Assembly: GCA_038248205.1 (NCBI GenBank)
Contig: JBBRUC010000005.1
Location: 1-63,841 of the forward strand
Source of the DNA: Thermoanaerobaculia bacterium
GTDB taxonomy: Bacteria > Acidobacteriota > Thermoanaerobaculia > Multivoradales > UBA5704
Direction of reading: 5' to 3'
DNA length: 63,841 bases
The notes beneath the pieces were generated by a model, which ran no database searches, was not told the origin of the DNA, and saw only the letters and a list, made by a program, of their open reading frames with translations. The stretch's first letter is position 1. Each line of letters opens with the position of its first letter. Shown piece after piece: positions 44,842-63,841 of the stretch. The translations under genes were made by a program, and so were the position numbers.

Positions 44842-44844
44842 CGG

Positions 44845-47291: not shown

Positions 47292-47310
47292 TACGTTGAC
47301 TCGTATTGCA

Positions 47311-47350
47311 GCACCGAAGGGCGCGCCAGGAGAGGATTCCTTGCTAAACT
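47311..47350. repeat. 40-nt direct repeat, copy B (19 nt downstream of vapC)
   Basis: GCACCGAAGGGCGCGCCAGGAGAGGATTCCTTGCTAAACT. See copy A at 46473-46512. Confidence 0.85.
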
Positions 47351-47402
47351 CGCCCGTGCCGAGCACCCCACCTCAGCTCCTACCGATCGGAGAGGCCCTG
47401 CC

Positions 47403-47666
47403 ATGAGTTCAAAGCCGACCTATCTGGACAGCGCCCACCGGAAGATGCGAATGGCGGAAGACATGTTGCGGGGGCTCGAAGAGCGGCTCGGCGACCTCGA
47501 ACGGACTCCGAGCTATATGCCGCTCGACCGGTCGGAAGAGAAGTTGTGCATCCTCGCGGGCGAGGCCCGGCGGGAGGTGGCGCGGATGGTCGCCGAGCTC
47601 TCTTTTCTGCTCGATAACCCAGATGCGGAACTGCCCGAGCCACCGTCGGCGCCCGCCGACGCGTAA
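47403..47666 (+). CDS. small hypothetical helical protein
   Basis: An 87-aa ORF with an ATG start. No family was recognised. Confidence 0.4.
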   Translation: MSSKPTYLDSAHRKMRMAEDMLRGLEERLGDLERTPSYMPLDRSEEKLCILAGEARREVARMVAELSFLLDNPDAELPEPPSAPADA

Positions 47667-47799
47667 GGCGGCGAAGTCGGGTAGTCCGAACATCGCGACA
47701 TCGATCGTAAAGTAGCGGGGCGAACCGGTCCCCGTTCTTCCCTGGTCCCTCCCCGAACGGGTAGCGGAGCTTGCGCCTCGGTCACTTATCATTCGGAAC

Positions 47800-48774: not shown

Positions 48775-48818
48775 GCGGTCCCTGAGAGGCCATCGATACG
48801 GGGATCCTGCAAAACCCG

Positions 48819-49100
48819 GTGCCCGTGAACGCCCTCTACGACCGCGAGGCCGCTCACGCCGTCACCTTTCGCAATCTGCTCCAGCGCCAGGGCTATCGGG
48901 ATCTCGACGAGATCCGCGATGAAGGACAGCAGCAAGCCTTGCGCGAATCCGTCCTCGCCGTCCTTCTAGCTCGCGGCCTGGCGGTCGACGAAGCGGCCCG
49001 CGCCGCCCTCGAAGCGATCGGCGATCCCGCCGTCCTGCGACGCCACCTCGGCCGGGCGGCGACGGTGGCGCCGACGGACGAAGTCTTCGTCGCCGACTGA
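48819..49100 (+). CDS. DUF4351-like fragment (C-terminal domain of Rpn/PD-(D/E)XK putative transposases)
   Basis: EGQQQALRESVLAVLLARGLAVDEAARAALEAIGDPAVLRRHLGRAATVAPTDEVF resembles the DUF4351 pattern. It is standalone and starts at GTG, so it is possibly a remnant. Confidence 0.35.
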   Translation: MPVNALYDREAAHAVTFRNLLQRQGYRDLDEIRDEGQQQALRESVLAVLLARGLAVDEAARAALEAIGDPAVLRRHLGRAATVAPTDEVFVAD

Positions 49101-49270
49101 GGGCTTCGGGTGGTACCTCTTGCTTAAGGCACCTATATAGCTGACCTGCCGGGTTGTATCGCTGCTCGCGATGTATATTCTCCTGAGCGGCATGGAAAAA
49201 CCCGTGTCGCAGAGCGCTCACGGCGAAGGCGTCTCGACCCTGTCCTGAGTGAAGCGGAGAATTCGCAGAT

Positions 49271-49606
49271 CTGGCCCAAACCACTACTGAGCTGGCCTGG
49301 ATCACTACTGATCTGGTCCAGATCACCACTGAGCTGGACCGGATCACCACTGAGCTGGACCAGATCACCACTGAGCTGGTCCAGACCACCACTGAGCTGG
49401 GCCAGATCACTACTGAGCTGGACCAGATCACCACTGAGCTGGCCTAGATCACTACCGAGCTGGACCAGACCACCACTGAGCTAGACCAGATCACTACTGA
49501 GCTGGACCGGACCACCACTGAGCTGGGCCAGATCACTACCGAGCTGGACCAGATCACCACTGAGTTGGGCCAGACCACCACTGAGCTGGCCCGGATCACC
49601 AGCTGG
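49271..49606. repeat. 16 tandem copies of a 21-bp unit (consensus CTGGACCAGATCACCACTGAG)
   Basis: Counted unit by unit. The copies are contiguous with no spacers. The plus frame reads as the heptad L-D-Q-I-T-T-E but contains a TAG in unit 9 and has no start codon. Confidence 0.95.
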
Positions 49607-49622
49607 GCTCCGGGGGACTGGC

Positions 49623-49809
49623 GTGAAGGTCAAAGATTTGATCGACAAGCTCGAAGGAGATGGTTGGAATCAAGTGCGGATGCGCGGCAGCCACCGACAG
49701 TTTCGGCATTCGACGAATGCCGGGTACGGTTACCGTCGCGGGCAAGCCGAGCGTCGACGTGCCGCCGGGGACCCTGAACGCCGTTCTTAAGCAGGCCGGA
49801 TTGAAGTAA
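49623..49809 (+). pseudogene. hicA: hicA-family toxin gene with a +1 frameshift
   Basis: VKVKDLIDKLEGDGWNQVRMRGSHRQFRHSTNAG is in one frame. TVTVAGKPSVDVPPGTLNAVLKQAGLK* continues in the next frame. The span is 187 nt, which is not a multiple of 3. Confidence 0.75.
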
Positions 49810-49820
49810 GAGGTGCTCAA

Positions 49821-50033
49821 TTGCAATACGCAGTGGTCATCGAGAAAGGGCCGGCCAGTTACGGGGCCTACGTTCCGGACCTGCCGGGCTGCATCGCCGC
49901 CGGAGCAACGCGGGCCGAGGTCATGCGATTGATCCAGGAGGCCATCGAATTTCACCTTGATGGGCTGCGCGAAGACGGGCTGCCGATTCCGGCCCCTGCT
50001 TCGTCCATCGAGCTGATCGAAGTGGCCGCATGA
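49821..50033 (+). CDS. hicB: HicB-family antitoxin (UPF0150 type)
   Basis: (M)QYAVVIEKGPASYGAYVPDLPGCIAAGATRAEVMRLIQEAIEFHLDGLREDGLPIPAP is a canonical HicB N-domain. Confidence 0.85.
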   Translation: MQYAVVIEKGPASYGAYVPDLPGCIAAGATRAEVMRLIQEAIEFHLDGLREDGLPIPAPASSIELIEVAA

Positions 50034-50065
50034 ACTGGGGCCCACGAGTTTAAGCGCCCGCAAGA

Positions 50066-50370
50066 GGATCGTGCTCCTCAAATGGCCTGGTATCGACCGA
50101 GGGCGGATCGCCGAGATGGTCGAGGCAATCACCGATCAGTCCGCCGCCCGCCAAGCAGAGCCGGGAATCGAGTCCAGGATTTCCCGAGCTTCCGGAGGTC
50201 GGCGACGATACGCCTGAGTGTTTCGGTCAGAGGGTTCATGAACGGCGAGGCCACGCAACCGCGCGGCCGACTCCGTCGCCGTGCTCGGCTCCGGGCCGAC
50301 GCTCGCGCCACTCCCGGACGTGGGCCTCGATTTCAGCCTCGCTGGCCAGAGGGTGTTTCCGCCGGAGTTT
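50066..50370 (+). pseudogene. short decayed remnant of a transposase-like gene 3' region (paralog of 52505-53196)
   Basis: IVLLKWPGIDRGRIAEMVEAITDQSAARQAEPGIES and a later LAGQRVFPPEF align with the equivalent parts of the longer remnant. It is broken by stops and frameshifts. Confidence 0.35.
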
Positions 50371-50438
50371 CTGTCGAACTCCCCGGCCTCCAAGAGCATG
50401 GCGAAGACTTCCTCGAGTTCCAGGAACGGAGACTTGGA

Positions 50439-50663
50439 CTACCGAAGCGTCTCGGTGAACTCCTCCACAGTCAGCCCAGCCAGCCGAATCAACTTGCGCA
50501 GTGTGCCGGGTGATAGTTCGCGGTGGTCTGGGACCGAGAGGGAAACGATGCTCCCTGGCCGAGTGAGAATCATGTGACTTCCGACTTGTCGACGGAAGAC
50601 CCAGCCTCGCTTCTCGAAAACTCGTCGCACCGCCCGGCCGGACACGACCGGCAGTTCAGGCAA
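50439..50663 (-). CDS. hicA: HicA-family toxin (YcfA-like)
   Basis: (M)PELPVVSGRAVRRVFEKRGWVFRRQVGSHMILTRPG...PDHRELSPGTLRKLIRLAGLTVEEF. A TTG start at 50663 overlaps the hicB stop. Confidence 0.8.
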   Translation of the reverse strand: MPELPVVSGRAVRRVFEKRGWVFRRQVGSHMILTRPGSIVSLSVPDHRELSPGTLRKLIRLAGLTVEEFTETLR

Positions 50664-50865
50664 CCGCGACCTCGACCTCAAGGGTCCGCACGGTCAGCGG
50701 CAGACCTTGCTCGGCTCGCACTTCCAGGCAACCGAGAATCGCTTCCCGAATGTTGGCCAGCGCCTCGGTCTCGGTTCGGCCTTGGCTGATACAGCCAGGG
50801 ATGGCCGGGCACTCGGCGACGAGCATTCCGGTTTCGTCTCGTTCGAGGGTCACGGAGAGTTTCAT
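50656..50865 (-). CDS. hicB: HicB-family antitoxin (UPF0150 type)
   Basis: MKLSVTLERDETGMLVAECPAIPGCISQGRTETEALANIREAILGCLEV. Confidence 0.8.
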   Translation of the reverse strand: MKLSVTLERDETGMLVAECPAIPGCISQGRTETEALANIREAILGCLEVRAEQGLPLTVRTLEVEVAVA

Positions 50866-50870
50866 GACGC

Positions 50871-51251
50871 TCAGGATACCATCGCCCACGAGGAAGGCTC
50901 TGCGGAGAGGCGAATCAGCGGCGACAACCAGGAACTCGGCCCCGGCACAAGATTGCCCGCCTGCCAAGATCTTTTGACGCCAGTGAGCAATGATCGGTCG
51001 AGGGCAATCATCTGAGTCACATTGGCGACCGAGTCTTTGGGAAGGCCCGTTTTGCTCGCGGAGAGAAGCACGTTGCCCGGCATGGCCGCCAAGCGAATAG
51101 TGGTCGTCAGGGGAATCACGACAACGGTGGCGAGCTGGCTGTAATTGAAGCTGTCACCCTGCACGATCACGACCGGCCGATTGAAACCCGGACCCTACCC
51201 AATCGGATCTGGCATCGTCGCCCACCAGATGTCGCCTTGAGAAATTACCAC
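50871..51251 (-). pseudogene. mazF: MazF/PemK-family toxin gene with an in-frame TAG
   Basis: A GTG at 51251 overlaps the antitoxin stop. The translation reads VVISQGDIWWATMPDPIG-TAG(51197..51195)-GPGFNRPVVIVQGDSFNYSQLATVVVIPLTTTIRLAAMPGNVLL...GLPKDSVANVTQMIALDRSLL. The C-terminal tail also looks atypical. Confidence 0.7.
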
Positions 51252-51484
51252 TCTGCGCGTTCGAGGACTCGCCGGGCCGCCTCTTTGACGAAGGAGTCGT
51301 GGCGCGTGTCGACTTCGTCGCACACGGCGTTGATCCGGTCGGTGATGCTCGGCTCATGGCGGGCCAGGTATTCGGCCACCGATTCGCTGTAAACCTGGCT
51401 TCGGGATTTCTTCAACCTGGCCGCGAGACGCTCCGCGTCTCGGAAGACTCTGTCGGGAATAGAGATAGCGGTCTTCATGCTCAA
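51245..51484 (-). CDS. RHH/CopG-type MazE-like antitoxin
   Basis: MKTAISIPDRVFRDAERLAARLKKSRSQVYSESVAEYLARH is a typical RHH antitoxin found upstream of MazF-like toxins. Confidence 0.75.
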   Translation of the reverse strand: MSMKTAISIPDRVFRDAERLAARLKKSRSQVYSESVAEYLARHEPSITDRINAVCDEVDTRHDSFVKEAARRVLERAEW

Positions 51485-51649
51485 AGTATAAGCCCATGGC
51501 TCCGCTCGGGCAACGAACTCGCGAACCAGTGTAGTGGCTTGGGAGGTTCAGTTCGAAGGCGATGTTGCGGCCGGCCGGCTCGACCACCTGGCTGAAAAGG
51601 CGCTCTCTTCCTTGCGCGCAGGGGAAAAAGAACGGGTAGGTCGCCCACC

Positions 51650-51859
51650 TCAGGCGACCTTGAGCGCCTGGGTGCCGACGAACTCCGAATGAAGCCTGGG
51701 CTCACCAGCCTCCAAGAGCATGGCGATGACTTCCTCGAGGGTCAGTCGAAGCTCATCCATCGTCTCTCCCTGCGAGTGAGCTCCGGGCCAGCCGGGCACG
51801 TGGCCAACGTACAGGCCCGTGTCGGTGTCCTTCTCGACAACGGCGGTGAAGTTTCGCAT
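51650..51859 (-). CDS. hicB: solitary HicB-family antitoxin
   Basis: MRNFTAVVEKDTDTGLYVGHVPGWPGAHSQGETMDELRLTLEEVIAMLLEAGEP. No intact hicA lies adjacent. A duplicated fragment of its 3' end is at about 51955-52015. Confidence 0.75.
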   Translation of the reverse strand: MRNFTAVVEKDTDTGLYVGHVPGWPGAHSQGETMDELRLTLEEVIAMLLEAGEPRLHSEFVGTQALKVA

Positions 51860-52017
51860 GGCGAAAAGGCTACCACTCGCAACCTGCGTTGTGTAACCCG
51901 AAAGGACGGTCAAGATCTTTTGGCGCCAGCGTCAGCATCGCAGAGGTGACCCTTGAGCGTCTGGGTGCCGACGAACTCCGAATGAAACCTGGGCTCCCCG
52001 GCCTCCAAGAGCAGCGC

Positions 52018-52236
52018 TCATGCAAACATCAGGCGACCCTTGGGCTCGGGAATCCGACGGCCCATCTCGCGCGCCGTTTCGATCCACTCGCGAATGACGA
52101 CCTTCACCGCAGCAACCGAAGCTTCGTAGGTGGGGCCGTCCGCCATGCAACCTGGCAGCTCCGGAACCTCAGCGAGGAAAGCGCCGTCTTCGTCGCTCCA
52201 GTAGATGATCACTTCGTATCGGGAATTAGTTTCCAT
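52018..52236 (-). CDS. hicB: HicB-family antitoxin
   Basis: METNSRYEVIIYWSDEDGAFLAEVPELPGCMADGPTYEASVAAVKVVIREWIETAREMGRRIPEP. Confidence 0.8.
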   Translation of the reverse strand: METNSRYEVIIYWSDEDGAFLAEVPELPGCMADGPTYEASVAAVKVVIREWIETAREMGRRIPEPKGRLMFA

Positions 52237-52483
52237 CGTCCGGCTCCGCAAGTTTGTACCGCACGATTACGTTCCGTACCTGCCGCACTTGGTAGCTCTT
52301 CGCCTTCCCGCTCGGAAGCGGTTGAAGATTGAGGATCTCGGCGACACCCTCCAGCCCGAAGATGCGATGGTCACCCCGAATTCGTTCCCTGAAGCCGAGA
52401 TTTATCAGCAGGTTGCGAAGCGGCACAAACTGGATGTTGTTGTCAGTACGCCCGGAGACGACCTGCTCGAGCAGGTGTCCCAC
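52226..52483 (-). CDS. hicA: HicA-family toxin
   Basis: A GTG at 52483 gives (M)GHLLEQVVSGRTDNNIQFVPLRNLLINLGFRERIRGDHRIFGLEGVAEILNLQPLPSGKAKSYQVRQVRNVIVRYKL. It overlaps the hicB start by 11 nt. Confidence 0.7.
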   Translation of the reverse strand: MGHLLEQVVSGRTDNNIQFVPLRNLLINLGFRERIRGDHRIFGLEGVAEILNLQPLPSGKAKSYQVRQVRNVIVRYKLAEPDDGN

Positions 52484-52504
52484 AGGACCATGTAGCGACG
52501 ATAA

Positions 52505-53196
52505 CACAGGGTCCGGCGAGCGATTGGCCTGTTCATGGACAAGGTCTTCTCTCGTCGATACCAAGCCATCCTCGTCAGGTACGAAGAGGAAGCCCAGATC
52601 GGGCGCTTGACCTGACATCCTCTCCCACGGCTGCAAGAAGACCTGGTCGCCCGACCCCAAGATTGGCCGAGGGTCCACTGCGTCACCGCCCTGCTGACCG
52701 GCCAAGCGTTCGAGGGAGCCTGGTTCGATCGCACAAAGGAGTGGGAAGCGTGCCAGCGCGGCGCGGAGGTCGGCGTCCGGCAATTCAAGGAGACAGAAGT
52801 CTTGAACCTCACCCCCCGTTTCCTGCTGGCGGCATCTATCGTCCGAGGAGTACCGTCACCGGATCGCCGAGATGATCGAGGCGATCGCCGCGATGGCCAC
52901 CGCCCGGCGAGCAGAGACAGGAATTGAGCCCTTCGGCCCGCTCGCAATCCTTCGGCAACGCCCCTTCTCGCAACCGGCGAAGACCAAGAGGTCGCCCGCG
53001 CCGCCAGCAAGCGGGTTCGGACCCAGATGCGGATTGCCGACGCCTGGTTCGCACGGGCCTGCCGAGAGGAGGCCGAGTACCTCAGGGCTGGCGTCGCGGG
53101 CCATCCGAGCCACTCGTGGACGCGGGCCTTCGATTCGGCCTCGATGACCAGAGGGTACTTCCAGCCGCAGCTTCTGCTGAATCACTGCCTGTATAG
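52505..53196 (+). pseudogene. decayed 3' two-thirds of a Y1/RAYT-associated transposase-like gene
   Basis: The plus-strand reading is RYQAILV...HPLPRLQEDLVARPQDWP...GAWFDRTKEWEACQRGAEV...EVLNLTP[fs]PVSCWRHLSSEEYRHRIAEMIEAIAAMATARRAETGIEPFGPLAILRQRPFSQPAKTKRSPAPP[fs]ASKRVR...LRAG. It contains an in-frame TGA at 52613 and at least two frameshifts, and the catalytic N-terminal domain is missing. The family assignment is from memory. Confidence 0.45.
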
Positions 53197-53328: not shown

Positions 53329-54615
53329 ATGCCAAAACGATATTTCGATTTCTCTTTGGGATTCGAGAACACGGCAGGAGGAGGGTATCTCGTTCGCGCC
53401 GCGTCTCGACAAGCTGAAGCGGAAAGCGTCACTGGCCTGACTTTCGATTCAGGAGAGCTGAAGGCACTGGGGCCGCTCGTCCGGGGCTCCGATTCGGTAC
53501 CTTGCATTAGCGACAACCACGAAGCTCTCGGCCGTGCCCTCTTCGCTGCTCTCTTTCCCGGACCAGTTGGCGAACTCTACTCGGCAGAATCTCAAGCGGC
53601 TAAAGATGCTGGGCTCGGACTCCGCATTCGCCTTCACTTTCGCCCTCAGAGCCCTGAATTGGCCTGGCTCATGAGAGTGCCTTGGGAACTCCTTTTCGAC
53701 GAGAACAATGGCGGCTTTCCCGCTCTGAACCCGAGCACTCCCATCCTGCGCCATCTCGACCTACTCCGACCGGCGAGCCGGTTTCCCTTCAAGTCACCTA
53801 TACGAATTCTGGTGGCGATGGCAGACACACTCGGTCCCATTCAACTGCAGCTAGAGGACGAGCTAAGGCGGATCGAGTCGGCCCTGTCGGGACGCAAGAG
53901 GTTCGAGGTAAAGGTGATCGGTAGGGCGTCGCCGGAGATCCTGCGACAGGAGCTGACGCGGAGCAAGTACCAAATCGTCCACTTCATGGGCCACGGGATT
54001 ACAGATTCAGGTGAAGGCAGCTTGATCTTCTCGACGCCTAGAGGGCAGGCCCGCCCGGTGGCCGGAAAGGAACTTGCGCACTTGCTCCAGGTCACGAGTA
54101 CGCCTGGGCTTGTGATCCTGAGCGCCTGCCGTTCCGCAGCGACTCCTCAGGACCACCGAGCTACTCCGCTTGCAGGAGTGGCCGGCGCCCTCGTTCGTAG
54201 CGGGCAACCTGCCGTCATCGGAATGCAGTTCGACGTCAACGATTCCGCAGCCATCACCTTCAGCGGCCGCCTTTACGAGCAGCTTGCCGAAGGCGAGCCG
54301 ATCGAGGCTGCCGTAGCCGAGGCCCGACTGGCGGTCTATTTGGCCAATTCGAACTCCACCAATTGGATTGCTCCGGTGCTCTTCTTACGAGGGGCAGACC
54401 AACGACTTGAGGGGAATCCCGTGAAAGCGAAGAATCCTGCAGGCGACAGTATTCGTCTCAGAGTCGAAAGCAATGAAGTCGAAGGCCGCGATATCGAGAT
54501 CCTCGGCTCTACCGGTGACCGATCGTCCGGCAGACCACGCAAGGTAGACGCCAAGATAGCAATAGGAAAGATCATCGCTCACGAAGGCTTGATCATCGCC
54601 GCAAACAAGAAATAA
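53329..54615 (+). CDS. CHAT-domain (caspase-like) protease
   Basis: The His-Cys dyad is visible in YQIVHFMGH(222)GITDSGEGSLIF and PGLVILSAC(267)RSAA. The IGMQF/AITFSGRLY context is typical of CHAT. It is the first gene of a lower-GC operon. Confidence 0.85.
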   Translation: MPKRYFDFSLGFENTAGGGYLVRAASRQAEAESVTGLTFDSGELKALGPLVRGSDSVPCISDNHEALGRALFAALFPGPVGELYSAESQAAKDAGLGLRIRLHFRPQSPELAWLMRVPWELLFDENNGGFPALNPSTPILRHLDLLRPASRFPFKSPIRILVAMADTLGPIQLQLEDELRRIESALSGRKRFEVKVIGRASPEILRQELTRSKYQIVHFMGHGITDSGEGSLIFSTPRGQARPVAGKELAHLLQVTSTPGLVILSACRSAATPQDHRATPLAGVAGALVRSGQPAVIGMQFDVNDSAAITFSGRLYEQLAEGEPIEAAVAEARLAVYLANSNSTNWIAPVLFLRGADQRLEGNPVKAKNPAGDSIRLRVESNEVEGRDIEILGSTGDRSSGRPRKVDAKIAIGKIIAHEGLIIAANKK

Positions 54616-54633
54616 AGACTGCCGGATAAGCGC

Positions 54634-55806
54634 ATGGATACTTTGAATGCCCTCTGGCACAGCATCTGGTCGGACAACTCGACACCAGGGAGAATCATCG
54701 TCCTTGTCATCATTGCCCTGCTCTTATGGGCACTCCGGAGCGGCTCCCGGCATTCCAGACGCTATCTAAAGGAAGAGAGAAACCTCTCGATTTTCGAGGA
54801 GAAGTTGCGGGAAGCCGCGACTCCGAAGGCAGCTGAACCCGGCAACGAAGAACTTCCAAATGGGCCGCAGCCGGTATCCCCGGCCGACCTAGCCAAGCTT
54901 CGAGAGGGTTTGGCGCCGGACAGTCTGATCGCGGAGCGGATCGAGGCGATCGAAAAGCTGCGGACTCGACAGGTCCGGGTAAATCCGAGCGCGCTTCAGC
55001 AGCTCAGTCTTGCCCGAGATGAAGCCCGGCCAGGAATGGCGGTCCCCGGAGCCGTCGCGGGCTTGGCGACCATGCTCGGTTTGCTCGGGACTTTCATCGG
55101 CCTCGCTATGATGGTTCAACAGATCCAGTTCGTACTGCCGCGGAACTCGGGTGCCACCTCCATCGATTCCTGGACGCAATCGGTCGACAACATCTCGCGG
55201 GTTCTCGGCGGGATCAAAACCGCGTTCTCTGCCTCCCTGGTCGGCATCGCCTGCTCCATTCTCGCCTCCTTGATCAACTTCAGGATGCGAACCGCCCAGG
55301 CTCTGCTCTTCGAGCGCTTGGAGCGCTTCACGACGGTGGATCTACTTCCGGCCGCTGTGCCAGCGGTCGAAGATGAAAGCCTCCTCGATCGCGTTTCGCT
55401 GCAGCTGGAGAACTCGTTTTCTCGCCTGGAAGAAATCTATCGCCAGAACCAGGAATCGATCAAAGACATGACTGGAGCACAGCGCGCCTTCGTCGATATT
55501 GTCGAAGAGATCCGCAAGATCACTCGCAGTGAGGCGTCGCAGAATCTCGAAGGTGTTCTAGAGCAGCTTGCACAAACAAACCGCTCTGTGCTGGCGGTGA
55601 CTCAACAGCTGCCCAAGATTGTGTCGGCGGTCGAATCGGGCCAGCACCGGCTTCTCGATCGCCTGTCGACCCTGCTCTCTTCCTTCGCTCCGATGGCCAA
55701 CGGCTCATCGCTCGGCGCGAAGCAGCGCTTGAGCACAACCGGCATCCTCGCCATCATTCTGGTCGGCTTGCTCATGGTCTTCTTTTACCTGAAGACGGGA
55801 GCTTGA
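54634..55806 (+). CDS. MotA/ExbB/TolQ-family ion-channel protein, atypical architecture
   Basis: An N-terminal TM helix is followed by the MotA_ExbB core (GLATMLGLLGTFIGLAMMV ... GIKTAFSASLVGIACSILASLINF). Then come about 150 aa of helical tail and a terminal TM helix (GILAIILVGLLMVFFYL). Confidence 0.75.
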   Translation: MDTLNALWHSIWSDNSTPGRIIVLVIIALLLWALRSGSRHSRRYLKEERNLSIFEEKLREAATPKAAEPGNEELPNGPQPVSPADLAKLREGLAPDSLIAERIEAIEKLRTRQVRVNPSALQQLSLARDEARPGMAVPGAVAGLATMLGLLGTFIGLAMMVQQIQFVLPRNSGATSIDSWTQSVDNISRVLGGIKTAFSASLVGIACSILASLINFRMRTAQALLFERLERFTTVDLLPAAVPAVEDESLLDRVSLQLENSFSRLEEIYRQNQESIKDMTGAQRAFVDIVEEIRKITRSEASQNLEGVLEQLAQTNRSVLAVTQQLPKIVSAVESGQHRLLDRLSTLLSSFAPMANGSSLGAKQRLSTTGILAIILVGLLMVFFYLKTGA

Positions 55807-56471
55807 ACGTGAGGTGGCACGAACGACACACGGGAGAGTTCGCTCGGCGCAGCATGCCCGTACCTTGGCCCGCGATGCTCGATCTAATTACCTCTACCTT
55901 TATGGTCTTCATGCTCATTACAACTCTCCAGCTGGCTCTCGGCGTCGACGAGATGGAGGCGGCGCTAACCCGGAACAAGCAAGAGCGTTTCCTCGAGAAT
56001 TTTCGGCGCGAGTTCGAAAAGGAAATCCGACGCGACGAGATTTCCGTGGAGCGTCACCTCAACTTCATCCAGATCCTGTTCCGTGACAACGTCCTGTTCG
56101 GGCCGGGGGATTTCCGGCTGGGCTCCGCCGGCAAAGGGTTGCTGGATCGATGCGCGCGGGTGTTCGCGAAGGCCGAGGGGAGTGGCTTCGAGCAGATCCA
56201 GGTCGAGGGGCACACAGACAACATAAACCTCGACCACGATCAATACCCCACCAACAATTGGGAGCTGTCCACAGCTCGGGCTCTCGAGGTCGTCGAGTTC
56301 CTGAGCCGCAAGCACCCTTCGTTCGCCCCAGCCCTTTCCGCCAACGGCTACTCCCATTACCGCCCGGTGGCGGACAACTCGACTCGCGCCGGACGCGCCC
56401 GTAACAGAAGGATCGAGATTCGGCTGTTCTTCTCCGGCACCGAGTCGACCCGAAAGGTCGCCGCGCGGTGA
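55803..56471 (+). CDS. MotB-like protein: TM plug with conserved Asp plus OmpA-type peptidoglycan-binding domain
   Basis: The start overlaps the upstream stop (TTGA). PWPAMLD(27)LITSTFMVFMLI is MotB-like. The OmpA_C motifs are QVEGHTDN, NNWELSTARALEVV and ARNRRIEIRLF. Confidence 0.85.
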   Translation: MNVRWHERHTGEFARRSMPVPWPAMLDLITSTFMVFMLITTLQLALGVDEMEAALTRNKQERFLENFRREFEKEIRRDEISVERHLNFIQILFRDNVLFGPGDFRLGSAGKGLLDRCARVFAKAEGSGFEQIQVEGHTDNINLDHDQYPTNNWELSTARALEVVEFLSRKHPSFAPALSANGYSHYRPVADNSTRAGRARNRRIEIRLFFSGTESTRKVAAR

Positions 56472-57262
56472 GACGGGACGCTTCCTGGTTGCTCCGCAGG
56501 TTTGCGGACGGAGGCGCTCCCGACTGGCGGGTGGAGGAGGCCCTGGGATGGGAATTCGACGCGCTGATCGACCGACGAGCTGCGCTGGCCGGAGAGTCGA
56601 GCGGTCTCCGGCGAACGGCCTCGGAGCAGCTGCGGGAATTCGACGAGGCGACCAACCGAGCTCTCCAGTGGCGAAAGGAGCGGCGATTCAAGGAAGCGCT
56701 ACTCGAGATTCGCCGCGCCCAGGTCGAACTGGCCAAGCTACAGCGTATCGTGACCGTCGAGCTGGGGCTGGCGCGAACTCTCGCTTTGATCGAGGAGATC
56801 GACGCGCTCGTCGAATCGCCTCTCCACGAGCTGCCGACCCTCGGCATCCTGCGGCGCTTGCAGCGTTTAGCGCGAGAGTTCCTGGATCAAGGGCAGCCGA
56901 GACCGGCAAACTTCGTGATCTTCCTCCTCACCGCCCAGGTCGATCGCCTGCGATCTCGCGAGCACGGTCGCGCCACCTCACCCGAGCCGATTTCGGCGCC
57001 TTCCGAGAGACCAAGGAGCGGAGCAGCGGCGGAGAGCCTGAAGCGGCTGAGCCGGGAGGGATACTTCCACCTCGCCGACAGGCTCTCCCAAGACCTCGAC
57101 ACAGTTCAGACCGTCGAGGAGCGTGCCCGGCGCGCTTCGGAGGCACAAGGGCCGATGGGCGCTCTTGTGGAAGAGATGAAAAGGATTCGCGAGCAGGCCG
57201 ATTCGGCCCGGCGCTCCCTGGCGGCATGGCTCGAAAGTGCCGCGCCTGCCAGCACTCCCTAA
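56468..57262 (+). CDS. hypothetical helical protein (operon gene 4)
   Basis: The GTG overlaps the upstream stop (GTGA). It is 264 aa, Arg/Glu/Leu-rich and predicted helical, with no TM segment and no recognised family. Confidence 0.55.
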   Translation: MRRDASWLLRRFADGGAPDWRVEEALGWEFDALIDRRAALAGESSGLRRTASEQLREFDEATNRALQWRKERRFKEALLEIRRAQVELAKLQRIVTVELGLARTLALIEEIDALVESPLHELPTLGILRRLQRLAREFLDQGQPRPANFVIFLLTAQVDRLRSREHGRATSPEPISAPSERPRSGAAAESLKRLSREGYFHLADRLSQDLDTVQTVEERARRASEAQGPMGALVEEMKRIREQADSARRSLAAWLESAAPASTP

Positions 57263-57272
57263 GGAGGGTGAT

Positions 57273-58577
57273 ATGGCTGCTTCACTTACCGAAGATCTGC
57301 GCGTCGCGTGGAAAATTCAGGGCGTCGGACCCGATCCGACGCATGCCCTGGCGATCTTCAAGAAGAACGGGACCGGAAGCGTCCTGCACAAAATGCTCGA
57401 GCCGGGACAGACCTTCCGACGATGGTTCGGCTCGCTCGACTCTTATCACGCTTACTCCATTTCAACTGAGGAGAATCTCCGGCACACTTTCAGCCGCAAG
57501 TACCAGGCCGTCAACCAGACCTGGACATTCACCCTCCATTTTGCTCTCGATTTCAAGGTTGCCAGGCCCAAGGTCCTGGCCCTCAAGCTGGACAGAAGCG
57601 ACCCCGTGCGGCGACTTGAGGAAGAGGTCGCGATGGTGCTTAGCGCCACGGCCCGTCGGCTCTCCTGGGAGGCCTTGGAGGTCGAAGGCCCCAGTTTCAG
57701 TCTCCGACTGTTGGAAGCCGAGAGCACGGAGGGTCTTGGCGAGCGCACCCTGAACTTCGTACGCCTTATATCCTTCGCGGAGAACCTCGGTCTCCAGCTG
57801 CGAAACGTCGGCGTCACCCGAAGTCTCTCCGAAGGGGATCTCCGACCTGTTATAAGAAAGCGCGAAGTAGGCATCCAGCTAGAGGTCAAGGTCGCCGACC
57901 ACACTCTGGCGAAGGGGGAGGAGCTGCTTCTGCACGATAGCGAACTCCTCAAAGATCACCATCGGCAGGAGCGTGAACTCCTCAAAGAGAATCACCGGCA
58001 GGAGCGTGAGCGGCTGGCTCTTCACGGAAATCAGATCCTTCAAGGTGCCGAGCGGCTCAAGCTCGTCCTCGACAGCTTGACCAAAGAGGGTCTTCGAGGC
58101 TTCTCGCAAGCCGTCGACGGCGTTCGCTCCTTTCCCGCGATCGCCGACGCGCTCGGGGAGGTACAAGCGATTCAGGCGAGTCTGATGAAATTGTCCTCTG
58201 TGCCGGCCTTCCCCCTATCGTCGCCGGACAACGAGGCGAACCCACTCGCGGGCTCGCAGGCGGTGCCTATTCTGACGGAGGCGAGACACCCTTTGGACCC
58301 GTTGGAGCGATTCGTCGGCGACGCCTTCCAGCATCTTCGCAGCCTGGATGAAAATCCCGCAGATAAGCGACTTCTTCTGGCCATCAGCCTGCATATTCTC
58401 GCTGAAGCCTCGATCGGCAACGAAGGCGACGAGGAGTTCTTGATCGGTTGCAGCGAGAGCTTGAAACGGCAGATCTATCCCTTGGAATCAATCTTGGGAG
58501 TCGGGCCGTTGGACTTCTTCAACCGGATCATGAACGTCGACGAGCTTCGACAGGATCTGAGGCTTGAAACCCGATGA
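57273..58577 (+). CDS. hypothetical protein (operon gene 5)
   Basis: ATG 57273 is preceded by AAGGAGGG. The N-terminal roughly 200 aa are beta/alpha and faintly SPFH/band-7-like. The centre has a tandem LLKDHHRQERELLKENHRQERERL motif. No confident family. Confidence 0.6.
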   Translation: MAASLTEDLRVAWKIQGVGPDPTHALAIFKKNGTGSVLHKMLEPGQTFRRWFGSLDSYHAYSISTEENLRHTFSRKYQAVNQTWTFTLHFALDFKVARPKVLALKLDRSDPVRRLEEEVAMVLSATARRLSWEALEVEGPSFSLRLLEAESTEGLGERTLNFVRLISFAENLGLQLRNVGVTRSLSEGDLRPVIRKREVGIQLEVKVADHTLAKGEELLLHDSELLKDHHRQERELLKENHRQERERLALHGNQILQGAERLKLVLDSLTKEGLRGFSQAVDGVRSFPAIADALGEVQAIQASLMKLSSVPAFPLSSPDNEANPLAGSQAVPILTEARHPLDPLERFVGDAFQHLRSLDENPADKRLLLAISLHILAEASIGNEGDEEFLIGCSESLKRQIYPLESILGVGPLDFFNRIMNVDELRQDLRLETR

Positions 58578-61030
58578 CCAAGCCACGTGACGAGCCGTTG
58601 CCTCTCGATGGGGAGGACGAACGGGAGGACGAGGAACCGCACGATTCCCTGGACGACGACGACGACGGTCCGGATCGGGTGGCGAACCAGAATTCCGTTT
58701 CCGTCAAATCGGATTTGATTTCGGCAGGAACCTTCGACCTGGCCGCCACGATTATCAAGAAACAATACAACTTCACGATGGCGTCGGCGACCACCGACAC
58801 GGTTCAGCTGTCGATTCACCATTTCCGCTCCTGGAGCCCGGAGGAGCTCGACCGTTGCGAGACGGAACTGGTCTTCGATCCGGAAGCGATGTCGGAACTA
58901 GAGCGCGCCTTGGAAGACCGGCGGATCCTGGTCCTCTGCGGTGAAGCGGAAAGCGGCAAAGGTAGCACGGCGTTGATTCTCGCCTCAAAGCTGACCAAGA
59001 CACTTGGGCTCCAGGGCTCGCTGGTCTGCCAGGGACTCGACTCCAATGTGCAGGTCGATCTCGAGAAGATCTGCGGCCAGCGCTCTTTTCAACGCCACGT
59101 GGTGATGTTGGAAGACGCCCTGGTCGGCGAGAGTTCATCGCTCAAGGACTTCGTCAAGACGATCGACGGAGTCCGCGTGGCAAACCTGTCGCAACGGCTC
59201 GAACGGAATGACTCCGTACTGGTCATCACGGCCACCCCCCATTCTCTCTCCGAACATCAGAAGCGACTCGAAGGGCTGGGGATACTCAAGCTTGTCGGCA
59301 CTGCCTCTGCGGAGTTGTTGTGGCGGGCCTTCCAGCGGTCCGTAGAGCGCCTGCCGCAGGCCCCGGAGCGACGCGAGGAGCTGGCAGCCGTGGTCACGGA
59401 GATCAAGGCGAACCTGCCGCCCGAGCTGAACACAATCCCGCGGATCGCTCGGTTCGTTCACGATTACCTCGGCGAGATCCTGGAAGGGAACCTCACGATC
59501 CAGCAGGCCCTCTCCCGGATGGACGACCTGTCTCAATGGTTGACTACCGATCTGTCGGGTGACTTGGACGCACAGGCGGCAGTGCTCGCGATCGTCCTCG
59601 GCTCGGCAGTTCCACCGGCCGCCGGCGTTCCCTGGCTCTTGTTCGACCAACTGCGGCGCAAGATTGTCGACCTCTTCCTCCGGGAGCTACGGATCTCGGA
59701 CGACAAGCCGCTCTCGACGGCCGGCTTCGGCAGCACGGCGTTCCTCCGGCGCGCCAGAGCCCATATCGTGTCGATGCCCTCTCCTCTGCAGGATCTCGTC
59801 CGGTTTCGTGACGATCGATATCCTCGACGGCTCTGGCAGGCCTTGTTGGGGTCTGCTCGCGGGATCGCGACCCTGTTGGTGCCCTTACTGAAAGAACTCT
59901 CGCACCACTCGGAAGACCTTTATTTCCGTGCTTGCGCCGCGGCGGCCTTGGGGCGGTTGGGGCAAATTGGACCGACATCGCTCGCGGTACCAATCATTGA
60001 GGAGTGGGCTCGGGACACATCTACACCGGATGATCTCCTCGGCTTCTTCCTTCAGGGAATTGTCGCAAGCGAGAACGACGGGTATATGGATTTCTGCCTG
60101 GCAGTTCTTCGCCATCAGGCTTCTCAGGAGGATCTCGCTGTGGCTCAGACCGTTGTCCACGCCTGGAGGCACTTAGGCTGCCGAGATCCCGCGCTGCCGA
60201 TCCGGGAGCTGTGCCTCATCGTACGATCGCGCCTCCCAATCCAGATCGATCAGCTCCGTCTAGTGGAACGGGAGGTTGTCGCGGAAGAGGAAAAGATCCG
60301 GGGCGCTGGGGACTCTCGTAAGGTCGCCCGCGAGCTGCGTGTTTTCCAAGCCCAACTTTTTGTCGTGATGGCCGCCGCCCTGGTCCCCGCGGAACGGATC
60401 CCCTTAGTGGGCGCGATCCGATATTCCCTGGCCGGCGTTCTGTTCTCGCAAGGCGGCAACCTCGGTCCAGTGCTGTCCGAGCTGACGGCTCGTATGCGAA
60501 AGGAGCCAACGAAGCTCGCCCCCCTCTTCGCCTATCTCTTCCTCCATCGCAGAGGCTTATTCGATCTACTCGATCAACACAAGTGGATCTCCAGCTCCCT
60601 GAGCCTGGCGCCTTGCAGTCGCTTCCTGATCACCGCGAGCCGAGGCCCCGAGGATGCCGCGACGTTGATCCAATTCCTGGAGAAGATCTTCGGCACACTC
60701 CAGACGTTTCCTGGGGTCTTCCAGCTCGTGCTCGAGCAGAGACTCCTTCAAGTTCTCAGGAACTGGAGCAAGGAGGGCTGTCAGGTGATCGAATTGCGAA
60801 CGACGGTTATCGGCTTGCTGAACAGCCTAAAATCTGCGGGAAATCCCTACCTAGCGAAGACTGTGATCCATTTCCTCCGGACGGACCGGCACTTCCTGAC
60901 CAAGGGAAGCCGCCTCCATGCTCTTGGAACCGATGTGTTAAACGGTCGTGGCATGGATCCAATTCCAGTGCCCTTAGCAACCAGGCGCTTGCCGCGATGG
61001 ATGGAGACGGAGCGGCGAGAGATCGATTAA
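58574..61030 (+). CDS. 818-aa P-loop-like NTPase with acidic N-terminus and helical-repeat C-terminal region (operon gene 6)
   Basis: ATGA overlap with gene 5. The N-terminus reads DEPLPLDGEDEREDEEPHDSLDDDDDGPD. The Walker A-like motif is ILVLCGEAESGKGSTAL (GK followed by G, not S/T) and the Walker B-like motif is RHVVMLEDAL. The remaining 550 aa are Leu-rich and ARM/HEAT-like. Confidence 0.6.
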   Translation: MTKPRDEPLPLDGEDEREDEEPHDSLDDDDDGPDRVANQNSVSVKSDLISAGTFDLAATIIKKQYNFTMASATTDTVQLSIHHFRSWSPEELDRCETELVFDPEAMSELERALEDRRILVLCGEAESGKGSTALILASKLTKTLGLQGSLVCQGLDSNVQVDLEKICGQRSFQRHVVMLEDALVGESSSLKDFVKTIDGVRVANLSQRLERNDSVLVITATPHSLSEHQKRLEGLGILKLVGTASAELLWRAFQRSVERLPQAPERREELAAVVTEIKANLPPELNTIPRIARFVHDYLGEILEGNLTIQQALSRMDDLSQWLTTDLSGDLDAQAAVLAIVLGSAVPPAAGVPWLLFDQLRRKIVDLFLRELRISDDKPLSTAGFGSTAFLRRARAHIVSMPSPLQDLVRFRDDRYPRRLWQALLGSARGIATLLVPLLKELSHHSEDLYFRACAAAALGRLGQIGPTSLAVPIIEEWARDTSTPDDLLGFFLQGIVASENDGYMDFCLAVLRHQASQEDLAVAQTVVHAWRHLGCRDPALPIRELCLIVRSRLPIQIDQLRLVEREVVAEEEKIRGAGDSRKVARELRVFQAQLFVVMAAALVPAERIPLVGAIRYSLAGVLFSQGGNLGPVLSELTARMRKEPTKLAPLFAYLFLHRRGLFDLLDQHKWISSSLSLAPCSRFLITASRGPEDAATLIQFLEKIFGTLQTFPGVFQLVLEQRLLQVLRNWSKEGCQVIELRTTVIGLLNSLKSAGNPYLAKTVIHFLRTDRHFLTKGSRLHALGTDVLNGRGMDPIPVPLATRRLPRWMETERREID

Positions 61031-61044
61031 TCCGGGATCAAGGC

Positions 61045-61455
61045 TCAAAATGCTCTGGCGGCTAATTCGCCAGTCTGCTTCTGAACCTCCGCCCCCTGAA
61101 TCGCCTTCTGCCGCCCCTCAAACCCCGCGTCGCTCAGTATCGACAGCTCCCGAGCCGCCACCAGTGCCGCCTCGGCTTTGCCTCGGTCCAGTTCGTCCAA
61201 CCGTTTGTCCTGCTCCGTCAGCAGGGTCAGCTTGTCCCCCACCATCTGGGCGAAGCCTCCGTCGACGTAAAGGGTTTGCTTGCCCTCGGGGAATTCGACT
61301 TTGAGGTTTCCAATCCCCATTTCGAAGAGGAAGGGGGCGCGCTGGGGGAGGACTCCGACTTCGCCGTCCCAGGCGGGGAAGCCGACGGCGGTCGCCTCGG
61401 TTTCGAGGACCGCTCGCTCGGGGGTGATGACGCTTAGGTGGAACGTTCCGGCCAT
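61045..61455 (-). CDS. atpC: F-type ATP synthase epsilon subunit, copy A
   Basis: MAGTFHLSVITPERAVLETEATAVGFPAWDGEVGVLPQRAPFLFEMGIGNLKVE... is a canonical AtpC. A 1-nt indel relative to copy B changes the last residues (QTGELAARAF versus QLAN). Confidence 0.8.
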   Translation of the reverse strand: MAGTFHLSVITPERAVLETEATAVGFPAWDGEVGVLPQRAPFLFEMGIGNLKVEFPEGKQTLYVDGGFAQMVGDKLTLLTEQDKRLDELDRGKAEAALVAARELSILSDAGFEGRQKAIQGAEVQKQTGELAARAF

Positions 61456-62408: not shown

Positions 62409-62744
62409 CTAGGCAACCCGCCGGGCACGGTGAGCCCGTTCCTGGAAGGCGACCATTTCCACGAGGTGAGCGAGACGTTGCTTGGGGGTCATACGGAGAC
62501 GCTGGACGATCTGGCTGCGGTCTGGGTCGGCGACATCTTCCCGTATCGCGTAGAGGAGGCAAGCTGTGACGTCATCCGCTTCCAGACCAGGATATGTTCG
62601 GGGGATCTCCTCTTCCCTCCGATCTGCCGCCAGGAGCGCGAGGACATCGGCCACTCTGACCTTCATCCCGCGAATGCACGGCTGGCCACCACATTGGTCT
62701 GGGTTGATCGTGATCCGATCGAGCAAGTCGGCGGTCGGCGTCAT
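62409..62744 (-). CDS. DUF433-domain protein (antitoxin-like) with C-terminal extension
   Basis: Start MTPTADLL (ATG 62744). ITINPDQCGGQPCIRGMKVRVADVLALLAADRREEEIPRTYPGLEADDVTACLLYA is the DUF433 signature. Confidence 0.7.
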   Translation of the reverse strand: MTPTADLLDRITINPDQCGGQPCIRGMKVRVADVLALLAADRREEEIPRTYPGLEADDVTACLLYAIREDVADPDRSQIVQRLRMTPKQRLAHLVEMVAFQERAHRARRVA

Positions 62745-62820
62745 GGCGGCGTCCCTCTTTTCTCGCAAAGATCCCTGCGGGCTCCGGCCTTCCTGGAGAG
62801 GAGCGCTCAACGGACCGCCC

Positions 62821-63033
62821 CTATGTCGAATTGCCGGGATCAACCCAGCCGGCAGAGCGAGGGCGCGTGACCACCGGATGACCTGAGGACGCCTGCCTCT
62901 CGCGCAGCCGGCGACAGAACTCGAAGATGTCGTTCCCCGCAGCGGCAAACAACGCCTGCCGAGCCTGCCTGACCTCTTCGACGATCGGATCGCGCCACCT
63001 TTCCTCATCGCGTGGTTCGTCGTTCATCTTCAT
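62821..63033 (-). CDS. small antitoxin-like protein downstream of and overlapping the PIN gene
   Basis: The 70-aa protein contains DPIVEEVRQARQALFAAAGNDIFEFCRRLRERQASSGHPVV, a pattern commonly seen next to PIN genes. It overlaps the PIN stop by 29 nt. Confidence 0.55.
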   Translation of the reverse strand: MKMNDEPRDEERWRDPIVEEVRQARQALFAAAGNDIFEFCRRLRERQASSGHPVVTRPRSAGWVDPGNST

Positions 63034-63502
63034 CTCCCATGAGCTCGTCCGGCGTACATAGGATCGGAGCGGGATAACCCTGTTCCTGGCACACTTGCTC
63101 GATTCGTGGACGTAGTTCCGCGTTCGCGATGTGCGTACAATTCCACGTCAGCAGAAAGTCGATCCCATGGTACGCCGTAAGGGCGATATGCGAAGCGTCC
63201 GCGTTGGCCCGTGGCGGAAGTCGCAACCGCTCGACCAGGATAGCAGCCAGCTCGGCAACGGGGGGCGTAAAATCCAAAAAGGGAAGCCCTGACAAGAAAT
63301 TCACTCTTCGTTGTGCCGCCTCGGCATCACCTTCGAGGATCTCATCGAGCTCGACTTGGGAGACGTAGAGGTCCAGCTCGCGGCGTCGCCACTGCCACCA
63401 CGCATGTGTGATCTGTTGTCGAGCCGCCACGATCAGGTCCCGGGGCGGCCGGGCAGCGAGGTAGCTGATAACGCTGGTCTCGACATACACCGTGCGCCGC
63501 AT
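63005..63502 (-). CDS. PIN-domain protein (VapC-like toxin)
   Basis: VYVETSVISYL (first acidic residue), EILEGDAE, DASHIALTAYHGIDFLLTWNCTHIAN; PIN-like acidic residue spacing. Confidence 0.7.
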   Translation of the reverse strand: MRRTVYVETSVISYLAARPPRDLIVAARQQITHAWWQWRRRELDLYVSQVELDEILEGDAEAAQRRVNFLSGLPFLDFTPPVAELAAILVERLRLPPRANADASHIALTAYHGIDFLLTWNCTHIANAELRPRIEQVCQEQGYPAPILCTPDELMGDEDERRTTR

Positions 63503-63663: not shown

Positions 63664-63841
63664 CTAATTCGCCAGCTGCTTCTGCACCTCCGCCCGGGCA
63701 ATCGCCTTCTGCCGTCCCTCAAACTCCGCATCCGTCAGCATCGGCAGCTCCCGGGCCGCCGCCAGCGCCGCCTCGGCTTTGCCGCGGTCCAGCTCGTCCA
63801 AGCGCTTCGCGCCTTCAGTCAGCAGCGTCAGCTTGTCCCCC
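63664..63841 (-). CDS. atpC: F-type ATP synthase epsilon subunit, copy B; C-terminal 58 codons (gene continues beyond window end)
   Basis: The minus-strand reading is GDKLTLLTEGAKRLDELDRGKAEAALAAARELPMLTDAEFEGRQKAIARAEVQKQLAN*. It is followed by a terminator and is about 84% nucleotide-identical to copy A by hand alignment. Confidence 0.8.
   Translation of the reverse strand, partial: GDKLTLLTEGAKRLDELDRGKAEAALAAARELPMLTDAEFEGRQKAIARAEVQKQLAN

Follow-up and report, generated by a model that had tools for sequence, protein, structure and literature searches.

Here we describe a six-gene operon (g1 to g6) in the genome of a Thermoanaerobaculia bacterium, located on a stretch of 63,841 nucleotides of the forward strand that was analysed as a whole and is called the window below (assembly GCA_038248205.1, contig JBBRUC010000005.1). 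The operon encodes a CHAT (caspase-like) protease, a putative membrane motor unit of two subunits, a small protein that is probably all-helical, a protein with a predicted SPFH (stomatin/prohibitin/flotillin/HflK/C) fold and a STAND-like NTPase. In related loci, the five genes g2 to g6 are inherited together, and gene 1 is swapped. We lean, although not strongly, towards the view that this operon, with its five-gene core and exchangeable effector, is a candidate for an immune or abortive-infection system that resembles Zorya and has not been described before. An initial annotation of the window had proposed a Zorya-like motor that controls a CHAT protease. As far as computation goes, this interpretation is supported, with defence as a candidate function; the part that has to be revised is the place of the CHAT protease, which is one of several exchangeable effectors.

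The six co-directional genes were found as open reading frames (ORFs) where the initial annotation had placed them (Table 1). Among the junctions that it had listed, the 4-nucleotide overlaps of g2/g3 (TTGA at 55803), g3/g4 (GTGA at 56468) and g5/g6 (ATGA at 58574) and the 10-nucleotide spacing between g4 and g5 are correct, whereas the spacing between g1 and g2 is 18 and not 19 nucleotides. An AAGGAGG ribosome-binding site precedes the ATG of g5 at 57273; a longer version of g5 starting from GTG at 57237 is possible, but without the support of a ribosome-binding site. The G+C content of the operon is 0.603 compared to 0.667 for the remaining window, in line with the lower G+C noted earlier. 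Neither a sigma-70-like promoter nor a convincing terminator was found in the surroundings of the operon, there is no convincing terminator inside it, and no Rfam RNA was found.

The arrangement of these genes is not a chance adjacency. We examined 12 related loci identified via protein look-ups and 23 identified via a metagenome scan. The same order, g2-g3-g4-g5-g6, recurs in all of the approximately 20 loci for which the contig is long enough, and the flanks of these loci are unrelated. Conservation of the operon as a six-gene unit had been suggested as a check on the initial annotation, and the outcome is that the core g2 to g6 is kept elsewhere with different flanks and that gene 1 varies. 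Identity to the window proteins falls to 31-38% for g2, 36-43% for g3 and 17-25% for g5 and g6, and among close relatives the membrane subunits share 65-72% identity compared to 43-52% for g5 and g6. Pairwise divergences of the core genes correlate with one another (Spearman 0.66-0.83), as expected for a unit that is inherited together. The distribution of the system is patchy. The g6 protein has only 34 close relatives, of approximately 820-840 residues, and all of the named ones are from Thermoanaerobaculia assemblies. A scan of genome contigs with an alignment of the whole of g2 was dominated by the generic motif MLGLLGT, and its matches to Leptospira and other MotA-like proteins were rejected as unrelated, with L009 as the sole true locus, whereas an alignment of only the g2 tail worked on metagenomes.

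The product of g1 matches the Pfam CHAT family at 112 bits (cut-off 24; expectation value, E, 3.7e-32), and it also matches PADLOC SAVED_CHAT (E 1.7e-14) and BovA. The PDB entry nearest to it by sequence is the CHAT protein 8tl0. The dyad recognized in the initial annotation, His222 (in HFMGHG) and Cys267 (in LNAC), is kept in eight CHAT orthologues. Window g1 and its three closest orthologues contain no hydrophobic segment; four other CHAT orthologues do, but without conservation of these segments. CHAT is not a fixed partner of the core, however, but one of at least five interchangeable gene-1 effectors, which include caspase C14, TIR_2, calcineurin-like phosphoesterase and trypsin-like protease types (Table 1). 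In a clustering based on g2, the loci with a short CHAT protein nest within the TIR clade, indicating that gene 1 was replaced. A conserved core combined with a variable effector is the pattern typical of immune and conflict systems.

As judged from their sequences, g2 and g3 carry the features of a MotAB/ZorAB-type unit. For g2, the MotA-type core of the initial annotation was recovered with Pfam MotA_ExbB at 29.2 bits, which is over the cut-off of 22.9, and PADLOC ZorA1 matches with an E of 2.1e-9 over a region that comprises the core and the first part of the tail only. Among the MotA-type models of NCBIfam, g2 matches ZorA models only, all of them far under the cut-off, and there is no match to the TolQ, ExbB, MotA and PomA models. 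The layout of g2 comprises a first transmembrane helix (TM1), a channel core of TM2 and TM3, a cytoplasmic helical tail of approximately 150-170 residues and a C-terminal TM4. Four hydrophobic segments are detected in 11 of 12 orthologues (three in L023 at the threshold used), and a hydrophobic helix at the extreme C terminus is present in all 12. Across 12 systems, MLGLLGT in the channel core is invariant and the TM3 motif is conserved, and the tail begins with a strongly conserved RFTxE[DE]LLPAxxP.

The second subunit, g3, has a single TM helix containing WPxxxD, in which Asp27 is invariant in the 12 systems, followed by an OmpA-type peptidoglycan-binding domain. Both features had been read in the same way before. 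The match to Pfam OmpA reaches 49.2 bits (cut-off 27.2; E 7.2e-13), and PADLOC ZorB1 matches residues 22-210, nearly the full length, with an E of 3.9e-20. The NCBIfam MotD and MotB models match far under their cut-offs (105 vs 283 bits). The PDB sequences nearest to the periplasmic domain are those of MotB, MotS, PomB and TssL.

Genes 4 and 5 had been described as unrecognizable, which stands for both proteins at the level of families; for g5 it does not hold at the level of the predicted fold. We found no match for g4 in Pfam, PADLOC, NCBIfam, PHROG and PDB sequences, and this is the least conserved core gene. Its versions of 260 and 315 residues, which occur in different effector clades, are homologous according to hhalign (probability 99.2%, E 9.8e-20), a relationship that is visible by profile-profile comparison only. 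In the absence of a conserved TM segment, g4 is probably cytoplasmic, and it is probably all-helical. Window g5 matches no family in Pfam (including Band_7), PADLOC and NCBIfam. Its AlphaFold2 model (predicted local distance difference test score, pLDDT, 78) consists of an SPFH alpha/beta domain at residues 1-185, a single helix of approximately 95 residues and a C-terminal helical bundle. When this model was compared to the PDB using Foldseek, the top 24 matches were all SPFH proteins (best E 1.3e-6), including prohibitin, HflK/C, stomatin and flotillin, with the long wall helix matched as well as the SPFH domain; FliL (6ahq) is a weak structural match. An exhaustive search placed 214 clusters at 50% identity in the g5 family, and the alignments do not contain any conserved stretch of 7-10 residues. 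Band_7 of Pfam is weakly matched by 17 of 57 family members (best E 2.3e-5) and is the only family matched by more than one of them. A TM segment is absent from g5 in 11 of 12 orthologues and none is conserved; likewise, no N-terminal membrane anchor was found in the 12 orthologues. Its model and the lack of conserved TM segments thus predict g5 to be a cytoplasmic, anchorless protein of the SPFH fold. The absence of conserved TM segments is also the reason why g1, g4 and g6 are placed in the cytoplasm together with g5.

The largest protein, g6, combines the P-loop domain of an NLR-like NTPase with an arm of helical repeats, consistent with the P-loop and helical repeats of the initial annotation. 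An acidic, disordered N terminus (residues 1-76) is followed by a P-loop domain (approximately 85-245) and a HEAT/ARM-like all-helical solenoid (approximately 416-790; AlphaFold2 model pLDDT 76). Pfam nSTAND3 matches window g6 at 24.0 bits, below the cut-off of 27.2, and the L020 orthologue at 37.9 bits, above it; window g6 also gives a weak HEAT_2 match. A hidden Markov model (HMM) of 12 g6 orthologues, L020 included, retrieves further g6 proteins at E values of at most 6e-154, and window g6 and the L005 orthologue are 25% identical (E 5e-56). The Foldseek matches of the g6 model are all weak (E 2e-4 to 3e-3) and comprise AAA+/STAND ATPases, among them PCH-2, RuvB, ORC, NLRP2 and Avs4 in the form bound to a phage portal, and HEAT/ARM solenoids, among them importin-beta and PP2A-A. 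Sequence-profile searches of the PDB returned nothing useful for g6 except designed HEAT-like repeat proteins, and nothing useful for g2 and g4. The Walker A motif of g6 is GEAESGKGS, with an invariant Lys129, and Walker B is VVMLED.

Zorya is the known system that comes closest. Its ZorA5B2 complex is described as a peptidoglycan-binding, proton-driven motor with a ZorA tail of approximately 70 nm that signals phage invasion to soluble effectors (PMC11946911). As in Zorya types I-III, the operon combines MotA-like and MotB-like subunits with cytoplasmic partners, and these partners vary between Zorya subtypes as well (ZorC/D, ZorE and ZorF/G). Like ZorB, g3 has an Asp in its membrane helix and a peptidoglycan-binding domain. 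Unlike the free coiled coil of the ZorA tail, the tail of g2 ends in TM4, and the unit is accompanied by an SPFH protein, a helical protein, a STAND-like NTPase and a toxic enzyme that can be swapped. The known Zorya effectors are directed at DNA (ZorC/D) and are not of the protease or NADase types. No match to ZorC, ZorD, ZorE, ZorF or ZorG was found for g1, g4, g5 and g6 among the PADLOC Zor models at E values of up to 1, and no PADLOC (PADLOC-DB 2.0.0) or NCBIfam model matches g4 to g6, in agreement with the earlier impression that the partners are unlike ZorC-G. Nor do genes 4 to 6 fall into the Zor, flagellar, Tol-Pal, TonB or gliding families. The system is thus Zorya-like, yet it stays below the curated ZorA models and has neither the long free tail nor ZorC-G partners. 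In the literature on combinations of Zorya-like, CHAT, SPFH, STAND and TIR proteins, we found no description of this architecture (text matches to "MotA" in a paper on TIR proteins were due to the unrelated word MoTad2). For these reasons, we class the system as a candidate variant of motor-coupled defence, with a real possibility that it forms a family of its own that works by a new mechanism.

Individual components have counterparts in other systems. SPFH-like FliL is reported to form a ring around flagellar stator units (PMC8794807). By analogy, g5 may be an SPFH-like protein paired with a MotAB-type unit, which for the comparison with FliL would have a 5:2 composition. FliL is a membrane-anchored, periplasmic protein of the flagellar motor, whereas g5 lacks both a signal peptide and a TM segment and is placed in the cytoplasm for this reason; in addition, g5 has the 95-residue helix and C-terminal bundle of cage-forming SPFH proteins, and there are no flagellar genes nearby. 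HflK/C, prohibitin, stomatin and flotillin form cages around membrane proteins, among them a protease, and regulate what they enclose. According to its model, g5 resembles these proteins in its SPFH domain and in its long wall helix, but it has no N-terminal membrane anchor, and neither FtsH nor NfeD is related to its operon partners. In g6, as in the Avs/AVAST STAND NTPases, an arm of helical repeats follows a P-loop domain, which in g6 is similar to nSTAND3; in contrast to Avs, the effector is encoded by a separate gene and not fused, the Walker motifs are non-canonical and the operon contains a membrane motor. Finally, g1 shares a CHAT domain with an intact His-Cys dyad with Craspase (type III-E), SAVED-CHAT (type III CRISPR) and BovA of Borvo, but it is small, stand-alone and replaceable, and lacks a SAVED, TPR or Cas partner.

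In bacteria of the multicellular type, combinations of CHAT, caspase, TIR and STAND proteins have been described as conflict systems of a general kind (Kaur, Burroughs, Iyer and Aravind 2020, eLife 9:e52696; PMC7159879). Those systems resemble the operon in containing STAND proteins, CHAT, caspase or TIR effectors, Band7-like scaffolds and domains, OmpA among them, that bind the cell wall. MotA, MotB, ExbB and TolQ do not appear in that article, Band7 occurs there only in fusion with vWA proteins of ternary systems, and an architecture like that of the operon is absent.

In the mechanism that we propose by analogy, g2 and g3 would assemble at a ratio of 5:2 into an ion-driven complex of the inner membrane, anchored to peptidoglycan, and this complex would report a perturbation of the envelope, for example, the injection of a phage genome. 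From there, the cytoplasmic tail of g2, whose end re-enters the membrane, would pass the signal on to a scaffold of g4 and g5 on the cytoplasmic face. The g6 NTPase might then switch or oligomerize and activate the effector by induced proximity, and the CHAT protease would cleave host or phage targets, resulting in growth arrest or death of the infected cell. Given that SPFH proteins form rings and cages on membranes and that FliL surrounds stators, an assembly of g5 around the motor is a reasonable hypothesis. The enzymes that occupy the position of gene 1 are typical of abortive-infection effectors, and a suicide or growth-arrest output is thus the most economical reading. A more specific version, in which g5 together with g4 forms a cytoplasmic SPFH cage on a 5:2 ion motor anchored to peptidoglycan and gates an NLR-like NTPase and a death effector of the caspase-like, TIR or another type, so that the whole acts as a membrane-bound "inflammasome" with a mechanical trigger, a breach of the envelope, is a tentative possibility to which we would not give even odds.

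Several observations weigh against an immune system of the Zorya-like kind. The scores of g2 with the NCBIfam models antiphage_ZorA_2 (31 bits, cut-off 100) and ZorA_1 (24.8 bits, cut-off 190) are low, the solved structures of ZorA, MotA and ExbB were not retrieved in the sequence-profile search of the PDB with g2, and the peptidoglycan-binding domain of g3 is nearer to flagellar MotB/PomB than to 8vvi ("MotB-like") and 8vvn ("MotB-related"). In g6, the Walker A motif is non-canonical, with G, A, Y, Q or T following the Lys and a conserved S/T one position later, and Walker B takes the form hhhh-x-[DE], with the usual first acidic residue being variable. The hydrolysis of a nucleotide by g6 is uncertain as a consequence of these deviations, and binding of a nucleotide is plausible from the motifs. 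Variability in the solenoid of g6 does not exceed that in the NTPase domain of the same protein, so that there is no signature of an arms race. A C-terminal docking tail of two hairpins, which appeared by eye to be common to the different effectors, was dropped, and with an HMM of the CHAT tail the TIR, caspase and Metallophos proteins did not score above shuffled controls. The neighbourhood of the genes, which the initial annotation had considered informative, gave a divided answer: the synteny of g4 to g6 is conserved, but there are no consistent defence systems in the flanks of the relatives, where PADLOC returned scattered matches to generic domains for 76 proteins at 10 loci and no systematic embedding in defence islands. 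No relatives were found among the viral contigs of IMG/VR and the plasmids of PLSDB.

The structure of g6 raises the alternative that g6 is itself the primary sensor, located in the cytoplasm like Avs and NLR proteins, and activates g1, in which case g2 and g3 with g4 and g5 would not sense but serve as a membrane anchor that holds the system at the envelope or as a second effector that opens and dissipates the ion gradient. STAND proteins are direct sensors of phage proteins, and both the NLR-like layout of g6, a P-loop domain with a helical-repeat arm, and the portal-bound Avs4 among its structural matches fit this role. A MotB-type unit provides an ion path in principle, and the invariant Asp is present. 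We consider this alternative unlikely, although it deserves to be taken seriously, for the following reasons. The membrane subunits are the most conserved components (65-72% vs 43-52% identity in close relatives), which is easier to explain for a core machine than for an accessory; the solenoid, as the part expected to sense, shows no excess variability, and the Walker motifs are degenerate; and the role of an effector is already filled by the enzymatic, swappable g1. Somewhat more improbable in our estimation is a function outside antiviral defence, such as cell death upon envelope damage, kin conflict or quality control of membrane proteins by an SPFH-regulated protease. The regulation of proteases enclosed in SPFH cages, the structures of HflK/C-FtsH among the top matches of g5, the description of CHAT/caspase/TIR/STAND combinations as general conflict systems (PMC7159879) and the flanks of the relatives, in which most genes are not of the classical defence kind, are consistent with such a function. 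A dedicated proteolytic quality control is difficult to reconcile with the exchange of the protease for a TIR protein or a phosphoesterase, and the patchy distribution, the lower G+C at three loci, the mobile-element flanks and the location of the window operon in a defence island likewise argue against a function of this kind.

Because g2 and g3 belong to the MotAB/ExbBD/TolQR superfamily, we also considered a housekeeping energizer with accessory proteins, akin to Tol-Pal, Ton, flagellar stators or gliding motors, and the rings that FliL forms around flagellar stators (PMC8794807), together with the weak FliL match of g5, could be taken to point in this direction. We observed none of the genes that would have to accompany it: TolA, TolB, Pal, TonB, GldM and flagellar genes are absent in and beside every cassette examined. 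The lack of an NCBIfam TolQ, ExbB, MotA or PomA match for g2, the cytoplasmic location predicted for g5 in contrast to FliL, the partnership with a toxic-enzyme gene and a STAND NTPase, and the patchy distribution with all named members from Thermoanaerobaculia assemblies further render a housekeeping function very improbable. A Zorya-like system in which a conserved motor-containing core directs an exchangeable effector remains the reading that we prefer.

Table 1. Positions of the operon, of other features of the window and of genes at related loci (L numbers)
Feature	Position or loci	Strand	Evidence or remark
Six-gene operon, g1 to g6	53329-61030	+	ORFs, co-directional, overlapping or near-abutting
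g1, effector, CHAT (caspase-like) protease, 428 residues	53329-54615	+	Pfam CHAT
g2, MotA/ExbB/ZorA-like channel subunit, 390 residues	54634-55806	+	Pfam MotA_ExbB, PADLOC ZorA1
g3, MotB/ZorB-like subunit, 222 residues	55803-56471	+	Pfam OmpA, PADLOC ZorB1
g4, probably all-helical protein, 264 residues	56468-57262	+	no family match
g5, SPFH-fold protein, 434 residues	57273-58577	+	AlphaFold2 model and Foldseek
g6, STAND/AAA+-like P-loop NTPase, 818 residues	58574-61030	+	sub-threshold nSTAND3 and model
PsyrT-like helicase, 692 residues	34398-36476	-	PADLOC PsyrT, full length, E 9.9e-268
Type II Wadjet, complete	38212-46476	-	PADLOC, E 1e-124 to 0
JetD2	within ORF 38212-40383		
JetC2	39525-43925		
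JetB2	43621-44841		
JetA2	44845-46476		
PIN	46863-47291		
HicB-like genes	49821-50033, 50656-50967, 51650-51913, 52018-52251		
HicA	50439-50681		
MazF/PemK-like toxin	50871-51170		
DUF433	62409-63008		downstream of the operon
PIN	63005-63502		downstream of the operon
Gene 1, long CHAT	window and 10 loci		
Gene 1, short CHAT (266-292 residues)	L041, L043, L045		
Gene 1, caspase C14	L023		
Gene 1, TIR_2	L009, L020, L034, L036, L040, L038		weak in L038
Gene 1, calcineurin-like phosphoesterase	L005		Metallophos
Gene 1, trypsin-like protease	L029		Trypsin_2
Optional seventh gene	L001:12322-14241, L004:12570-14432, L023:16765-18591, L024:15950-17815, L025:15670-17583		directly after g6
Extra trypsin/Nal1_C-like protease	L009:16347-17345, L020:16525-17460, L039:15195-16655		
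Extra trypsin/Nal1_C-like protease	L040:306-1547	-	
Further CHAT/caspase genes	L019:1185-3302, L019:5339-8449, L020:18484-21236, L023:439-1884, L031:6979-8709		
Further CHAT/caspase genes	L039:3743-7042, L039:17632-18864, L043:16201-17754		

Some cassettes contain additional genes. An optional seventh gene after g6 encodes a protein of approximately 610-640 residues that has no Pfam match and carries one or two hydrophobic segments in the vicinity of residues 470-550; the copies of L001 and L004 are 66% identical. At TIR-type loci, an extra gene for a trypsin-like/Nal1_C-like serine protease adjoins the cassette, following g6 in L009, L020 and L039, which suggests that the TIR clade has a two-enzyme output of TIR and protease. 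The window has neither of these genes after g6 because a convergent atpC follows there. Further large CHAT, TPR-CHAT or caspase C14 genes are often located within 10 kb of the cassettes on either strand, and class II lanthipeptide synthetase-like genes (DUF4135 and LANC_like) are found near two otherwise unrelated cassettes (L005:1-2569 and L021:1144-4425).

A G+C content clearly below that of the flanks is a property of the cassettes in the window, L002 and L005 only. At L005, IS66 transposases and three integrases surround the cassette. The cassette of L020 adjoins SNF2, RecD2, SWIM and HTH-S24 genes. Its SNF2/DUF3670 helicase (L020:993-4076) is the only SNF2 protein among the 76 flanking proteins and most probably the one that matches PADLOC ZorD1 (E 7e-128) and DpdE (E 2e-123). 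The helicase gene lies 5 kb upstream of the TIR-type cassette, with an opposite-strand RecD2 gene in between and the SWIM protein following, and the ZorD1 match probably reflects generic SNF2 similarity and not a link to Zorya.

The window itself is a real defence and toxin-antitoxin island, as the initial annotation had described it, with a PsyrT-like helicase, a type II Wadjet system (JetABCD), HicAB, MazF and PIN genes upstream of the operon. The helicase suggests a PsyrTA-type toxin-antitoxin or defence module, and the G+C content of the window peaks in the Wadjet region (0.71-0.77). The toxin-antitoxin gene cluster spans 46863-52783 and 62409-63502. It contains several short direct repeats of 39-72 nucleotides that are 69-94% identical, which indicates that HicB modules were duplicated. 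A tandem array of a 21-nucleotide unit at 49205-49643 (approximately 440 nucleotides and 20 units, detected as 14 overlapping windows of the repeat search, approximately 65-88% identical to the reference) crosses the ORFs 48862-49434 and 49596-50132, both on the minus strand, and would give a 7-residue repeat if translated.

At the other side of the operon, atpC is present twice in the window. The complete copy (61045-61455, minus strand) is preceded only by the last approximately 150 codons of atpD (61480 to approximately 61950), and the second copy (63665-63841) runs past the end of the window; the P-loop of the beta subunit is not present anywhere in the window. A 166-nucleotide direct repeat with 84% identity (61075-61240 and 63676-63841) covers part of both copies, and the 2.6 kb that separate them hold the DUF433 and PIN genes. 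The double atpC resembles a scar left where an insertion or duplication took place at the end of the atp operon.

Zorya has established that a motor resembling the flagellar stator can be used as a sensor in bacterial immunity, and the operon family described here would wire such a motor to different parts. With a compact cassette of 7.7 kb, the family offers natural effector-swap variants for studies of signalling from envelope events, of the roles of anchorless SPFH proteins and of the control of caspase-like proteases in prokaryotes. If the "inflammasome" reading is true, the operon would connect, for the first time, SPFH scaffolds with ion-driven rotary motors and immune signalling of the NLR/caspase type, and it would define a family of motor-based defences that is new and separate from Zorya.

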